Below are positions 328 to 40,098 of a stretch of 46,382 nt of DNA, one piece after another. Position 1 is the first letter of the stretch. The number at the start of each line of letters is the position of its first letter. Made by a program: the position numbers and the translations under genes. The notes beneath the pieces are model-generated. The model made no database searches and was not told the DNA's origin. It worked only from the letters and a program-made list of their open reading frames with translations. The DNA lies in the sequence record DRR723986_8697, one strand, 5' to 3'.

Positions 328-1452
328 TTATACGTAGTTATTCAACATCACAGGCATTACTAGCATTAGGATGTCTTCGTTTTCATCCTGCTCAGCCGGA
401 AGGATCAAACCTGCACGGTTAGGCGCAGAGAACTTCAAGCTAACTTCTTTGCAAGAAAGGTTATTCAACATTTCTACCAGGAATTTAGCGTTGAAACCGA
501 TTTCGATATCCTCTCCATCGTGCTCACAGGAAAGTCTTTCGTTCGCCTCGTTAGAGAAATCAAGATCTTCAGCAGAAATCATCAATTCGCTACCCGTCAA
601 TTTCAATCTTACCTGATGCGTGGTTTTATTTGCATAGATCGCGATACGACGAAGTGAACTTAACAATTCTGAACGGTCAATAGTCATCACGTTCGGGTTT
701 TCCGCAGGAATTACATTTTCGTAATCAGGGAAACGCTCGTCGATCAAACGACAAATCATCTTGATGTTATTGAAGTTGAAATAGGCGTTTGACTGATTAA
801 ACTCTACAGTTACCGGAAGATTTTCTGAAGGCAAAGTTGACTTCAAAAGGTTCAATGCTTTACGAGGAATAATCAAAGTAGCAGCATCCTGTGAAGCGAT
901 ATCTACTCTTCTGTATCTTACCAGTCTATGTCCGTCAGTTGCTACGAAGGTAGTATTTGTTGGGCTTAGATTGATGTAAACACCAGTCATTGCAGGACGA
1001 AGTTCATCTGAACTAGTTGCGAAGATCGTGTTAGAAACAGCTGAAGAAAGCACCTCAGTAGACATGTCTACAGAAGTAGCGTTGCTTACAGTTGGGATTT
1101 TCGGGAAGTCAGTTGCATTCTCACCAGCCAATCTATATCGACCATTGTCAGAACTGATCTCAACCGCGTAAGTATCATGATCAATGCTGAAAGTAACCGG
1201 CTGCTCTGGTAGGTTTTTCAACGTCTCGATCAAAATCTTTGCAGGCACCGCGATATTTCCATCTTCCTTAGCCTCCACGTTGATTTCAGTAATCATAGAA
1301 GTCTGCAAATCAGATGCGGTAATGGTCAATAGACTCTCTTTGATCTCAAAAAGAAAATTTTCCAAAATTGGCACTACGGGATTGGTTGTTACCACACCGT
1401 TGATAGCCGAAAGCTGCTTTAATAATGCAGAAGAGGAAACAATAAATTTCAT
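328..1452 (-). CDS. dnaN: DNA polymerase III beta sliding clamp
   Basis: 374 aa; ITASDL, VATDGHRL, FPDYENVIP, IGFNAKFL and C-terminal LVMPV motifs. Confidence 0.98.
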   Translation of the reverse strand: MKFIVSSSALLKQLSAINGVVTTNPVVPILENFLFEIKESLLTITASDLQTSMITEINVEAKEDGNIAVPAKILIETLKNLPEQPVTFSIDHDTYAVEISSDNGRYRLAGENATDFPKIPTVSNATSVDMSTEVLSSAVSNTIFATSSDELRPAMTGVYINLSPTNTTFVATDGHRLVRYRRVDIASQDAATLIIPRKALNLLKSTLPSENLPVTVEFNQSNAYFNFNNIKMICRLIDERFPDYENVIPAENPNVMTIDRSELLSSLRRIAIYANKTTHQVRLKLTGSELMISAEDLDFSNEANERLSCEHDGEDIEIGFNAKFLVEMLNNLSCKEVSLKFSAPNRAGLILPAEQDENEDILMLVMPVMLNNYV

Positions 1453-1475
1453 ATGATTATAATTTTTCTATTGAA

Positions 1476-1544
1476 GGTCATATGGAATCTCGCATAGATT
1501 ATGAACATCCCAATCTGAGAAGTTTAGTCATGCTCGATTTCATA
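1476..1544 (-). promoter_or_regulatory. Conserved 5'-leader hairpin element, copy 1 (candidate cis-regulatory RNA)
   Basis: Minus strand TATGAAATCGAGCATG...TATGCGAGATTCCATATGACC, ending 23 nt before the dnaN ATG; shared with 27726-27798 and 39876-39945. Confidence 0.6.
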
Positions 1545-1664
1545 TCGTAGGGCTTAATATATTTTTACTTTTGAATGGGGGTAAATTTATAAATAAATTC
1601 TAATTCGAACCGTCGTATAAATGAATCTCTGACAAAATAATGAAATAGAACCTATTTTTTTGAC

Positions 1665-27667: not shown

Positions 27668-27721
27668 TGTAAATAAGCTGCAAGATTTCAAAGATGTATT
27701 TTATCTTGCAGCTTATTTACA
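27668..27721. repeat. Perfect 19-bp inverted repeat after fbp
   Basis: TGTAAATAAGCTGCAAGAT-16 nt-ATCTTGCAGCTTATTTACA; no U-tract. Confidence 0.85.
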
Positions 27722-27725
27722 ACGC

Positions 27726-27798
27726 TATGAAATCGAGCATGAGTAAGAACCCCTTGCATAAAGGTTTTACTGTAATGCATGCGAGATTCCATGTGACC
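27726..27798 (+). promoter_or_regulatory. Conserved 5'-leader hairpin element, copy 2
   Basis: TATGAAATCGAGCATG...CATGCGAGATTCCATGTGACC, ending 21 nt before ATG 27820. Confidence 0.6.
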
Positions 27799-27819
27799 GT
27801 TGGAAAACAATATATACAC

Positions 27820-28986
27820 ATGACAAAAAACAAACTATACCTGCCTATCGCTCTCGTAGCATCTGGCATCGCCTTAGCAACATCTTGCTCACCTAAAGAG
27901 CAAGAAGCTGTAGTCGAACCTATCGATGAGACTTACGCTGTTCAAACTGAACAGCTATTAATCAATGTTGACACCCTTTATACTGGATTTGAAAATCCTT
28001 GGGGCATGACATGGCTATCTGATGGTAGAATGCTTGTTACTGAGAAAAAAGGAGAAATCCTTATTTTCAAAGACGATAAATTCACCGGAGAGAAAGTACA
28101 GGGGCTTCCTGAGGTTTGGACAAAAGGTCAATCTGGTTTGTTGGACGTTACAGCTCATCCAAAATTTGATGAGAATGGCTGGATCTATATTTCCTATGGC
28201 AAGCTAATGCCAGATAGCACATCCGCTACAACGATCACAAGATTTAAGCTAGAAGGCAATAATGCAGTCAATCAAGAAGAGCTGATTCAATCGCTTCCAG
28301 CATGGAAAAGCAATGCGCATTACGGTAGTCGAATTGTATTCGATAACGACGGATACCTTTACTATTCTAGTGGAGACCGTCAAAACACTCCTACAAATGC
28401 ACAGGATTTGACCAACTCTCATGGAAAAATTCACCGAATTCATGACGATGGCAGAATCCCGACTGACAATCCATTTGTAGATACTGAGGGTGCCGTAGCT
28501 TCAATCTGGACTTATGGAAACAGAAACCCTCAAGGCTTGTATTTCGACAAAGAAAATAATAGACTTTATGAAACTGAGCACGGTCCTCAAGGTGGTGACG
28601 AGTTGAATTTGTTGGAAAAAGGAAAAAATTACGGTTGGCCAGTGATTACTTGGGGAATTGGATATGATGACAAACCAGTTTCTGACATTCAGGAAAAAGA
28701 AGGAATGGAACAACCATTAACTTATTATGTACCATCCATCGCTACTGCGGGTATGACAATGGTCACTTCAGATAAATATCCGGCTTGGAAAGGCGATATT
28801 CTTATCGGTGCATTAAAGAAAATGCACATCAACCGTGTAGACATGAATGGATCTACCGCCGGAGAGCAAGAAATTATGCTTCAGGATATCGGACGTGTAC
28901 GCCAGGTTTCTCAAAGCCCAGATGGCTATATTTATGCTATTACTGAAGGTACAGGCTTAATGGTAAAGTTGATTCCGATTAGATAA
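27820..28986 (+). CDS. PQQ-dependent soluble sugar dehydrogenase (GdhB/YliI-like) lipoprotein
   Basis: Start moved to 27820 so the lipoprotein signal (MTKNK...LATSC) is N-terminal; PWGMTW, GLLDV, HYGSRI, YGNRNPQG, EHGPQGGDELN. Confidence 0.9.
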   Translation: MTKNKLYLPIALVASGIALATSCSPKEQEAVVEPIDETYAVQTEQLLINVDTLYTGFENPWGMTWLSDGRMLVTEKKGEILIFKDDKFTGEKVQGLPEVWTKGQSGLLDVTAHPKFDENGWIYISYGKLMPDSTSATTITRFKLEGNNAVNQEELIQSLPAWKSNAHYGSRIVFDNDGYLYYSSGDRQNTPTNAQDLTNSHGKIHRIHDDGRIPTDNPFVDTEGAVASIWTYGNRNPQGLYFDKENNRLYETEHGPQGGDELNLLEKGKNYGWPVITWGIGYDDKPVSDIQEKEGMEQPLTYYVPSIATAGMTMVTSDKYPAWKGDILIGALKKMHINRVDMNGSTAGEQEIMLQDIGRVRQVSQSPDGYIYAITEGTGLMVKLIPIR

Positions 28987-37404: not shown

Positions 37405-39854
37405 TATTCTCTAGTGTAGTTACCTATACGAATCACATCTGCAAACACTCCTGCAGCAGTTACGTCTGCACCTGCACCTGGACCTCGGATGATCATTGGT
37501 CTATCACGATATCTATCTGTAGTCAATAGAATCATATTGTCACTTCCTCCCAATCCACTAAATGGATGAGAAAGTGGAAGGGAATTCAACCCTACTTTCG
37601 CTTTGCCATTCTCCAAAGTTGCCATGAAGCGAAGTTTTTCTCCTTTTGCTTCAGCTGTTTTCAGCATGTCTTCAAAATCAACATCATGCGTTTTCAACAC
37701 TTCAAAAAACTCTGGAACAGTACCTAAATTTTGACAATCTTCAGGTACCATGCTTTGGATCTCGATAGAGTCAAACTCCAAATCCTGCTCTGCCTCACGA
37801 CCCAAAATCAGGATCTTCCTAGCCACATCCATTCCACTCAAATCATCTCTAGGGTCTGGCTCAGTAAAGCCAAGTTCTTTCGCTTTTTTTACCACCTCAG
37901 AGAAAGGATCACCTTTTTCAAGTTCAGAGAAAATATAATTCATCGACCCAGAAAGTACCGCTTCTATACGAATCACCTTATCTCCACTTAGCATCAAATC
38001 CTGTAACGTATTGATTACTGGAAGTCCTGCCGCTACGTTGGTTTCATACAGGAATTTCACACCACGTTTTTTTGCCAAACGCTTAAGTGATTTGTATTGC
38101 TCCATGGAGCCAGAATTGGCTTTTTTGTTTGGAGTAACGATTGCAACTTTAGCTTCCAAAATCTGAGAATAAAGCTCAGCCACATCCTGGCTTGCGGTAC
38201 AATCCACAAATACAGAATTGGAGAAGTTCATCTCTTCCATAGTTCTGATGAATTTACCCAAATCAGTTTGATCATCAGAATCACTCAGTTCATATGGATT
38301 GGAAAGGTCGAAGCCATCTTCATGGAAAGCCATATATCGACTGTTCGCAAGACCGTGGATCTGAATATCCAATTCATTATCCCCACGGAGCTTTTGCTGT
38401 TGGTTAGCTATCATTTTGATCAGCGCTTGACCAATCAACCCTGTACCAACCAAAAATACGTGAAGCACCTTATTTTCTGATAGGAAAAACGCCTCATGAA
38501 GCGCGTTCAGCGCCTTCTGCAAATCTGGCTGAGGAATCACAGCCGAGATATTCAACTCCGAACTCCCCTGCGCAATTGCTCCTACGTTAATATTGTTTCT
38601 TCCCAAAGCACGGAACATACGTCCCGAAGCACCTGGGTTATGCTTCATATTTTCGCCAACTACGGCTACAGTAGCCAAGTTATGTAGCAGTATGACCTCA
38701 TCCATTTCTCCGGATTTGATTTCATAGAAAAACTCCTTTTCCACTGCCTCTTTTGCCAAATACGCTTCCTGAGTTTTGATCGCCAAGCAGATACTATGTT
38801 CAGAGGAAGCCTGAGAAATAAGCAAAATATTTACTCTCGCCTCAGCCAAAGCTTTGAATACTCGACTCGTCCCAACTGCAGAATCCAACATTCCTGGACC
38901 TTGAACCGTCACAATAGAAACATTTGGAATAGAGCTAATCCCTTTGATCAATGCTCCAGGGCTTACTTCCCCGTTGATCAGTGTTCCTGGATTTTCAGGC
39001 TCAAAGGTGTTTTTAATATAAATAGGGATGCTATTTCGCATCGCTGGCTGCATGGTCGCCGGGAAAATAACTTTGGCACCAAAATGCGAAAGCTCCATCG
39101 CTTCATTATAACTCAGCTGAGGAATGGTGAAGGCAGTGTAAACCAACTTCGGGTCTGAAGTCAACACGCCCGAAACATCTGTCCAGATTTCAAGACACTC
39201 AGCATTTAAAGCTGCCGCAAAAATGGCCGCTGTATAATCTGAGCCTGATCTTCCAAGTGTAGTAGTTTCTCCTTTTTCAGTAGATGCGATAAAACCAGTG
39301 ATTACTTTGATTCCCTCATGCTTTGCAAAATAGTTTTTGATGGCAGCGTTGGTGACATCAAAGTCAACCTTCGCCTGACCGAATCGATCATTGGTACGGA
39401 TTACTTCGCGTGCATCAAGAAACTGAGTTTTCAGTCCATGTCCCTGCATGGATTCTGCAAGGATAAATGCCGCCAGCCTCTCTCCAAAACTTGCCACATA
39501 ATCCAGTGTGCGAACAGAATTTTCTTTGATCAGGTAAATGCCATGAAAAAGATCCTCTAACTCTTTGAATCGTACTTTCACAAAGGTCATCACGGTTGAC
39601 TGGCTCTGTACAGAGATCAACTGACGTACGATGGTCAGATGCTTTTCTTCCAAAGATTGTAGGACTTCACGGTACGCCTCATCTCCTTCTCTAGCCAACT
39701 GGGCTATCTTCAATAAGCTTTCCGTCACTCCTCCAAAAGCAGAAAAAACAATAGCTGTTTCATGTTCTTTGAGCGTTTCCTTAATGATAGAAAAAACTCG
39801 CTGTATATTTTCAGGGTTCGCTACGGATGAGCCACCGAACTTGATGATTTTCAT
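37404..39854 (-). CDS. thrA: Bifunctional aspartate kinase/homoserine dehydrogenase I
   Basis: KFGGSS, TTLGRSGSD, two ACT domains, GTGLIG, YETNVAAGLP, TEPDPRDDLSG, GPGAG. Confidence 0.97.
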   Translation of the reverse strand: MKIIKFGGSSVANPENIQRVFSIIKETLKEHETAIVFSAFGGVTESLLKIAQLAREGDEAYREVLQSLEEKHLTIVRQLISVQSQSTVMTFVKVRFKELEDLFHGIYLIKENSVRTLDYVASFGERLAAFILAESMQGHGLKTQFLDAREVIRTNDRFGQAKVDFDVTNAAIKNYFAKHEGIKVITGFIASTEKGETTTLGRSGSDYTAAIFAAALNAECLEIWTDVSGVLTSDPKLVYTAFTIPQLSYNEAMELSHFGAKVIFPATMQPAMRNSIPIYIKNTFEPENPGTLINGEVSPGALIKGISSIPNVSIVTVQGPGMLDSAVGTSRVFKALAEARVNILLISQASSEHSICLAIKTQEAYLAKEAVEKEFFYEIKSGEMDEVILLHNLATVAVVGENMKHNPGASGRMFRALGRNNINVGAIAQGSSELNISAVIPQPDLQKALNALHEAFFLSENKVLHVFLVGTGLIGQALIKMIANQQQKLRGDNELDIQIHGLANSRYMAFHEDGFDLSNPYELSDSDDQTDLGKFIRTMEEMNFSNSVFVDCTASQDVAELYSQILEAKVAIVTPNKKANSGSMEQYKSLKRLAKKRGVKFLYETNVAAGLPVINTLQDLMLSGDKVIRIEAVLSGSMNYIFSELEKGDPFSEVVKKAKELGFTEPDPRDDLSGMDVARKILILGREAEQDLEFDSIEIQSMVPEDCQNLGTVPEFFEVLKTHDVDFEDMLKTAEAKGEKLRFMATLENGKAKVGLNSLPLSHPFSGLGGSDNMILLTTDRYRDRPMIIRGPGAGADVTAAGVFADVIRIGNYTRE

Positions 39855-39875
39855 GTGTTATAAGTTGATTTTATG

Positions 39876-39945
39876 GGTCACATGGAATCTCGCATAGTTG
39901 ATAATCATACCTCTGTGTAAACCTTCGGCTATGCTTGATTTCATA
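39876..39945 (-). promoter_or_regulatory. Conserved 5'-leader hairpin element, copy 3
   Basis: Minus strand TATGAAATCAAGCATAG...CTATGCGAGATTCCATGTGACC, ending 21 nt before the thrA ATG. Confidence 0.6.
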
Positions 39946-40032
39946 AATTTTACTTCTGGAATTAATTACTTGGGAAATTAATATTAGCCAATTAAGGCCT
40001 AGGGGGCGGGTACTTAAAATATATAGACGGGA

Positions 40033-40098
40033 TTAACCCGTAATCGTGGTACCAATCCATGTCGTCATAGAAAAAGTGGTGCAGGCTCTCGCTTCCAT
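40033..40098 (-). CDS. Putative thr operon leader peptide (21 aa, MEARACTTFSMTTWIGTTITG)
   Basis: 7 Thr and 2 Ile in the last 15 codons; same strand as thrA, stop 178 nt upstream of the thrA ATG; alternative in-frame ATGs at 40146 and codon 11. Confidence 0.7.
   Translation of the reverse strand: MEARACTTFSMTTWIGTTITG

Follow-up and report, generated by a model that had tools for sequence, protein, structure and literature searches.

A small hairpin repeat, probably mobile, lies directly before ATGAA gene starts in Cyclobacteriaceae genomes

Immediately upstream of a sugar dehydrogenase gene, in a 46,382 bp stretch of DNA that we refer to as the window, lies one copy of what is probably a small, non-coding DNA repeat of ~92 nt that is, or formerly was, mobile. 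The repeat unit runs from ATGAAAT... to ...CAN and is located directly 5′ of the sequence ATGAA. We put the probability that this is a mobile repeat inserted before ATGAA, rather than an inherited regulatory leader, at roughly 0.8; the mechanism by which such a repeat would be moved lies outside of that figure and is considered separately below. The element is absent from the same gene in relatives, is found next to unrelated genes, varies widely in copy number and occurs in tandem arrays, and it is this combination that amounts to the behavior of mobile DNA.

Results

Extent of the element at the sugar dehydrogenase gene

The full repeat unit at the dehydrogenase gene (copy 2) is 93 nt long and occupies positions 27727–27819 of the plus strand. 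Its limits are based upon a comparison of filled and empty orthologous sites and upon a covariance model, R1, which was built from 28 copies of the element and matches copy 2 with a score of 93.3 bits (E = 6e-17). The unit begins with a 5′ arm, ATGAAATCGAGCAT (27727–27740), the first 6–7 bases of which (ATGAAAT) repeat the target sequence, and continues with a variable middle (27741–27778) that differs among copies and, in the predicted fold, forms an extended apical stem-loop. It is followed by the 3′ arm, ATGCGAGATTCCAT (27779–27792), and the bases GTGACC, which together span 27779–27798. The unit closes with an A-rich tail that ends in CAC (27799–27819, plus strand) and consists of conserved columns that are missing at empty sites.

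Both arms are located where the original prediction had placed them. The element as a whole was correctly positioned too, except for its 3′ boundary, which had been set at 27798, whereas the unit continues to 27819, the last base ahead of the start codon (27820). The tail is the sequence immediately 5′ of the dehydrogenase start codon, and an alignment of the three copies found in the window reveals that conservation runs on through the A-rich tail up to the start codon. Copy 2 separates the native 5′ UTR from the start codon of a lipoprotein gene (27820–28986, plus strand) that encodes a glucose/sorbosone dehydrogenase of the GSDH family (Pfam PF07995, E = 2e-123, as measured on the orthologue from G001, the nearest relative genome used for comparison).

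The pattern of the 3′ arm matches the window three times, compared to an expected 0.35, and none of 100 shuffled sequences reached three matches. The 5′ arm pattern alone is not significant in the window (five matches versus 2.27 expected; 12 of 100 shuffles reach five). When the covariance model was applied to the window, exactly three copies were identified at E ≤6e-17, with match spans of 1442–1556 (minus strand), 27714–27830 (plus strand), and 39844–39957 (minus strand), and the next match had an E-value of 0.66. Copy 1 (1453–1543, minus strand) is immediately upstream of the dnaN start at 1452, and copy 3 (39855–39944, minus strand) is immediately upstream of the start of the aspartokinase/homoserine dehydrogenase gene at 39854. 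The limits of both were assigned from the model match and from the empty sites of relatives, which for copy 3 are those of G045 and G046.

We also inspected contigs from four DNA runs (≥95% likeness). All of them carry the element at the dehydrogenase locus, and no empty allele in which the flanks are joined was seen, a result that bears upon this locus and not upon activity elsewhere. In the public DNA runs X6 and X7, contigs stop inside copy 2, at positions 27759–27785 of the window, and the element probably breaks assemblies. Farther upstream, a perfect 17-bp hairpin (TAAATAAGCTGCAAGAT / ATCTTGCAGCTTATTTA) without a T run is found after the fbp stop codon (27670–27719, plus strand). The loop and 3′ half of this hairpin contain TTTATCTTG, which is located ~8 nt upstream of copy 2 and bears a resemblance to the −7 promoter box of Bacteroidetes.

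The in-frame ATG and the true start of the dehydrogenase

The ATG at the 5′ end of the element (27727) is in frame with the dehydrogenase gene and is not followed by a stop codon, since it forms part of an open frame that extends from 27694 to 28986, in agreement with the original prediction. Because this decoy ATG is both in frame and open, gene callers add 31 residues to the dehydrogenase, and the suspicion that the element would be absorbed into the coding sequence in this manner was justified: P0001, a public cluster of 26 sequences called at 419 aa, begins MKSSMSKNPLHRGF.... An exact look-up of three possible starts of the dehydrogenase protein gave no match in the collection.

It could be argued, from the frame that is open into the gene and from the 419 aa call that makes use of it, that 27727 is the real start and that the element encodes a 31-residue N-terminal extension. 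However, nothing of this kind precedes the gene at 28 of the 30 orthologous loci, and in 26 of the 30 the alignment reaches the first residue of a protein whose start corresponds to 27820. Directly after 27820 comes a signal peptide that, as read from the sequence, has a lipoprotein-like cysteine. Furthermore, the 5′ ATG of the element is in frame with the downstream gene in 9 of 29 G001 copies and in 18 of 65 copies overall, yet the frame is both in phase and open to read-through in just 2 of the 65. We therefore see next to no chance that 27727 is the true start, and the in-frame, open ATG at this position is a matter of chance. The start at 27820 that had been deduced earlier is thus upheld by the orthologues, and the stretch beginning MKSS... 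is indeed non-coding, as the searched orthologues that lack the insert show no N-terminal extension.

Copies of the element abut the start codons of unrelated genes

At all 30 loci examined in G001, as well as at the three in the window, an ATG located 17–23 nt beyond the 3′ arm opens an ORF of between 72 and >490 aa. We then compiled 75 distinct copies, a non-random sample in which 30 copies came from the pattern search and 12 from dnaN orthologues. Seventy of these lie immediately before a real gene start (an ORF of ≥60 aa in 65 cases and rpmJ in five), and the sequence ATGAA follows 71 of the 75. In these genomes, ATGAA is most often a gene start, encoding Met-Lys, Met-Asn, or Met-Glu.

The proteins encoded downstream of the 30 G001 copies are functionally unrelated, and none of them is a transposase. 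They include aspartokinase, DnaN, OmpH, four SusD-like proteins, PFK, L25, PRAI, RsmB, and LacI. Some copies are organized in tandem arrays that share a single ATG, and some of these arrays mix sub-families with different arms. One array is located at ATGAAATTAAC, a non-genic ATGAAAT that does not open any gene, which argues that the target is a sequence rather than a function.

Filled and empty orthologous sites

At four loci (sugar dehydrogenase, dnaN, thrA, and rpmJ), the element is present in some species and cleanly missing from close relatives. The insert always comprises exactly the unit ATGAAAT...CAN placed before ATGAA, and the empty sites at these four loci carry no footprint.

Amongst 30 sugar dehydrogenase loci, one is filled (that of G001), one is occupied at this very position by another, degenerate insert, and 28 are empty. 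Empty sites in orthologues with 90% and 86% protein identity read ...taattaactgact joined directly to ATGAAAAAT. The copy at the dehydrogenase is specific to the species of the window and to G001. The gene now starts with ATGACA instead of ATGAAA, and the 3′ arm of the G001 copy has changed (CCAACTG), from which it would appear that copy 2 may no longer be mobile.

Twelve of 80 dnaN loci are filled. The locus in the window reads ...aagccctacgat, followed by the element and then ATGAAATTT, whilst in relatives with 98–99% DnaN identity ...aagccctacgat (...ccctacgat) is joined to ATGAAATTT, again with no footprint. At thrA, 6 of 30 loci are filled (a count that leaves out one locus flagged by a loose pattern, in which no element was seen on inspection), and G045 and G046 are cleanly empty. 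The 22 resolved infA-rpmJ loci comprise 15 with a 6–7 nt spacer between the genes, 6 with the element, and 1 with a remnant.

The region upstream of the aspartokinase/homoserine dehydrogenase gene also contains an 11-codon ORF, MTTWIGTTITG (40033–40068, minus strand), with five threonine and two isoleucine codons, which congeners have retained and after which a short hairpin (ACGGGTTAATCCCGT) is found. Judged by its sequence, the ORF looks like a threonine attenuator leader peptide. Copy 3 stands between this ORF and the ATG of the aspartokinase/homoserine dehydrogenase gene.

Family size, age, and distribution

The 3′ arm pattern matches G001 32 times, compared to none for the reversed control, and the covariance model identifies at least 70 copies in G001 and 73 on the complete chromosome of Algoriphagus yeomjeoni. 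Within the genus, the element was found in 18 of 25 genomes searched, with 0 to at least 90 copies apiece. Across the family, with one genome per genus (reported as 121 genera), it occurs in 60 of 121 genomes, a count that takes in the unpublished G158 on the basis of one match. Outside of the family, yet in the same order, 2 of 16 genomes have a single match each.

The G001 copies are at most 79% identical to one another (mean 57%), and we therefore conclude that there has been no recent burst in that genome and that its copies are old. The conservation of arms and tail in such old copies fits continued selection, either for mobility or for use by the host.

A scan of the window against Rfam at the gathering score returned a tRNA, but no family for the element, and a more permissive scan of three copies gave only a chance match to a miRNA (E = 0.89). 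No description of the repeat family was found in full-text searches of the literature on Algoriphagus for MITEs and REP repeats, or with wider terms.

Within the 3′ arm of the element, after GAGATTC/CAT, there is a further hairpin repeat of much smaller size (TCCCGA...TCGGGA, in many cases with CAGG behind it). It occupies the same point in at least eight copies from different genomes (L031, L051, L103, L145, L216, L225, L229, and L289), and such nesting at one fixed point suggests that it is another element with a related target preference.

Structure and covariation

The unit is made up of three parts: a hairpin with outer arms that are conserved or co-varying, a variable middle, and a 3′ tail that pairs with the start codon. 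The last of these pairings involves CCAT-N-TG and CA-N′-ATG, which spans the start-codon junction, and is represented in copy 2 by CAUGUG (27790–27795), which is complementary to CACAUG (27817–27822). The N/N′ pair was tabulated over 74 cells, and it is GC in 27, AU in 22, CG in 13, UA in 2, GU in 1, and some other combination in 9, so that 65 of the 74 have a standard pair and all four Watson-Crick types are represented. The covariation score of the whole structure was above that of all 500 shuffles and of all slid controls.

The UUCCAU of the 3′ arm has two alternative partners, namely the AUGAAA at the 5′ end of the element and the AUGAAA of the gene. More fully, UUCCAUNUG pairs either with CAN′AUG(A)AA across the junction or with the element's own AUGAAAU end. 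Sub-families with compensated arms were found (AAUCGAGCAU/AUGCGAGAUU, AAUGCC/GGCAUU, and AAUACCC/GGGUAUU), and another compensated pair of arms, AACCCGCAUG/CAUGCGGGUU, was found in a genome from another family. Arms and inner stem form one composite hairpin with compensated changes, and separate left-end and right-end hairpins are not evident. The numbers of G.T and A.C (37 versus 29) show no strand preference; one invariant A.C on the gene strand, which corresponds to G.T on the other strand, is only suggestive as to which of the two strands folds.

As RNA, copy 2 has a minimum-energy fold of −24 kcal/mol (z = −2.85; none of 200 shuffles was as good), in which the inner helix of the arms, the extension at the apex, and, over the start codon, the CAUGUG/CACAUG helix are all formed. 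The additional folding of the middle that had been noticed earlier (GAGUAAGAA/UUUUACU and CCUU/AAGG) is present in this minimum-energy fold.

Given such a structure, one has to consider that the element might be a conserved cis-regulatory RNA leader belonging to a vertically inherited regulon, in which the 3′ arm would act as a translational switch by alternating between the 5′ arm and the start codon as its pairing partner. This was the view taken by the original prediction, and several observations agree with it. The two pairings of UUCCAU are mutually exclusive, the start-codon helix co-varies, the fold is more stable than that of the shuffles, and arms and tail are retained in old, diverged copies. 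In addition, five small genomes keep the rpmJ copy as their sole copy, with some compensated pairs, the six rpmJ sequences being too few to decide on conservation of the structure. However, a shared leader is difficult to reconcile with the orthologous genes of close relatives, which are cleanly devoid of the element at four loci (at the dehydrogenase, in orthologues as close as 90% and 86% protein identity), with downstream genes that have no common function, or with a copy number that varies from 0 to at least 90 inside one genus. Nor would it account for tandem arrays in which sub-families are mixed or for the copy at a non-genic ATGAAAT, and the element has no match to an Rfam family. We consequently consider an inherited regulatory leader to be very unlikely, and favor a mobile repeat.

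How the repeat might move

As to how the mobile repeat is moved, a folded single strand is probably involved, and we tentatively suggest a mechanism in the manner of the IS200/IS605 elements and their non-autonomous derivatives, the PATEs; to this particular mechanism we give somewhat less than even odds. Read on the other strand, the target TTCAT lies 5′ of the element, the element itself ends in TTCAT, and a complementary "guide" is located at the foot of the hairpin, ~22 nt from TTCAT. As TTCAT is ATGAA on the gene strand, such a target would explain the apparent homing to start codons.

Precedents for these steps are described in parts of a study of the IS200/IS605 family, according to which the adjacent motif of the element ISGst5 is TTCAT, the transposon-adjacent and transposon-end motifs pair and co-vary with DNA guides lying within the sub-terminal ends, and gene-less PATE derivatives exist (PMC10055086). 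Compared with PATEs and ISGst5 as they are presented in those parts, the element is similar in its precise, footprint-free insertion next to a fixed TTCAT (the reverse complement of ATGAA), in carrying that same TTCAT motif at its far end, in its gene-less copies, and in a guide at the foot of the hairpin that is ~20 nt from the cleavage site and shows covariation (PMC10055086). It is unlike the IS200/IS605 elements in that it appears to have one composite hairpin where those elements have separate ones at the left and right ends, in that neither a cognate Y1 gene bearing the ends of the element, at the loci scanned, nor a TnpB, in five high-copy genomes, was found, and in that it has no replication-linked orientation bias. 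IS200/IS605 elements are usually biased in their orientation relative to replication, owing to insertion into the lagging-strand template. On the complete chromosome, no replication-linked bias was detected, with 33 copies on the plus strand and 40 on the minus strand, and 41:32 as the best split between half-chromosomes; such a bias could be obscured by rearrangements and by the age of the insertions.

Y1 genes of the IS200/IS605 type were found in 29 of the 31 genomes examined from the genus, among them genomes devoid of the element, and their presence is not correlated with copy number. In G022, which has at least 90 copies, there was no Y1 match at E ≤1e-5. The Y1 genes of G001 match the model for the IS200/IS605 transposase. 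A covariance model scan of 12 Y1 loci from the genus found the element at none of the 12, and pattern searches of the five remaining G001 Y1 loci, along with L099, gave no good match to the arms. Among 19 Y1 loci in a further five genera, a single locus has an ordinary, unrelated copy ~1 kb away, so that there is no linkage beyond chance. TnpB was not found in any of the five high-copy genomes.

Other repeats were seen at some of these Y1 loci. L099, a G001 Y1 locus that was analysed for repeats, is flanked by its own, different REP-like hairpin repeats, and the flanks of four other G001 Y1 genes (L243–L246) also look like separate hairpin families; L247, from the same genome, is a partial Y1 match only. 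Hence, several REP systems may coexist in one genome. At L291 (G097), a degenerate copy of the element, several REP hairpins, and a Y1 gene are nested together within ~1040–1970. The tail of the element (ATTGAAAAACAAATTATAAATAA) is located there directly after the Y1 stop codon and before the ATG of the next gene; we did not count this arrangement as linkage.

A serious rival to an IS200/IS605-like mechanism is a site-specific recombinase acting upon the shared ATGAAAT core. Rather than being moved by a single-strand HUH enzyme, the element would be exchanged within the 6–7 bp (ATGAAAT) that it has in common with its target, as a folded hairpin resembling the attC site of an integron. In attC sites, each side bears two inverted 7-mers, there are internal mismatches, and the center is variable; the arms of the element have a similar layout. 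Every insertion has ATGAAA(T) at its two junctions, and one copy of this sequence, without any footprint, is retained where a site is empty. The lack of a replication-linked orientation bias is also in keeping with recombination, as are the many tyrosine recombinase genes that are present. On the other hand, an integron integrase (TIGR02249) scored above the curated cut-off in none of five genomes, linkage of the element to a recombinase gene was not observed, and a simple core exchange leaves both the conserved 3′ tail and the pairing that spans the junction unexplained. On balance, we consider recombination of this kind unlikely, whilst taking it seriously.

The inverted arms, variable core, and high and variable copy number of the element, together with the direct repeat of ATGAAA(T) at both of its junctions, are also reminiscent of a classical MITE, which a DDE transposase would move in trans, duplicating a strongly preferred 6–7 bp target, ATGAAA(T). 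However, the inverted arms are not terminal, and the conserved 3′ tail of ~27 nt has no 5′ partner. The supposed duplication is always the same sequence, and empty sites have no footprints. Among the G001 arm matches listed, no pair of arms 0.5–5 kb apart stands out, and a longer element bounded by these ends was thus not observed. A MITE is accordingly improbable.

Comparison with other repeat families

The element is an abundant mobile repeat in an unusual position at start codons, and its closest kinds are the PATE derivatives of IS200/IS605 and the REP/REPIN repeats. It shares with the latter, which are associated with RAYTs, the form of a short hairpin repeat with conserved arms and a variable loop that is present in tens to hundreds of copies, and Y1 genes with REP-like hairpins of their own are found in the same genomes. 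It differs from them in its asymmetric tail and in its fixed place before ATGAA, rather than anywhere between genes, and the G001 Y1 genes that were examined are flanked by other hairpin families.

A position immediately upstream of genes, together with internal stem-loops, is shared by the REP2 repeats of Neisseria and by upstream repeats of Borrelia, as described in part of PMC3184786. These repeats include the promoter, the ribosome-binding site, and the ATG itself, and because they carry the translation start region, many unrelated genes come to share a leader (PMC3184786, same part). Set against that description, the element differs in that the ATG is that of the host gene, no promoter was identified, and the sequences are unrelated (PMC3184786).

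Resemblance was also noted to the NTS/SRM repeats of the Ssn system, which, in the portion of PMC11893778 that deals with them, are hairpin repeats found in many copies around genes, are recognized as single-stranded DNA, and flank the ssnA gene. With respect to that account, the element has a different motif, and no linkage to an ssnA-like gene was seen (PMC11893778). The Ssn/SRM system was rejected as a candidate, as 1 of 30 GIY-YIG loci from five high-copy genomes had a copy of the element within 1.5 kb, which is approximately the number expected by chance.

Discussion

If the element is mobile DNA, the TTCAT target gives a simple reason for its apparent homing to start codons. For those who annotate these genomes, its presence has a practical consequence, since the element creates false N-terminal extensions, such as that in the public 419 aa call with its 26 member sequences.

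The possible consequences for the genes that receive a copy follow from its location. Lying directly before the start codon or, at rpmJ, in the spacer of an operon, an inserted element would presumably be transcribed as part of the 5′ UTR or of the intercistronic space. It would supply an A-rich region of its own before the ATG and would hold the start codon in a short helix, with a possible effect on translation, and it would leave a decoy AUGAAA behind the native upstream region of the gene. One could go further and envisage a family of elements that homes to start codons, with a target motif that reads, on the opposite strand, as the most common gene start of these bacteria, and in which each insertion swaps the translation start region of a gene for a portable, structured leader that hides the start codon and sets a decoy start upstream of it. 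We regard this reading, taken as a whole, as speculative and, at present, doubtful.

The region before the start codon has been replaced by the same structured sequence at no fewer than 70 genes in each of two genomes and at least 90 in others, and the genes affected include essential ones. These bacteria are generally held to start translation without a Shine-Dalgarno sequence, and the element would thus be a natural experiment that bears upon the upstream requirements of such ribosomes at an ATG. Were the start-codon-homing reading true, some ~70 to at least 90 genes per Cyclobacteriaceae genome, dnaN, rpmJ, pfkA, and thrA among them, would share one leader, which may have been taken over by the host for global translational control that responds, for example, to temperature or to a binding factor.
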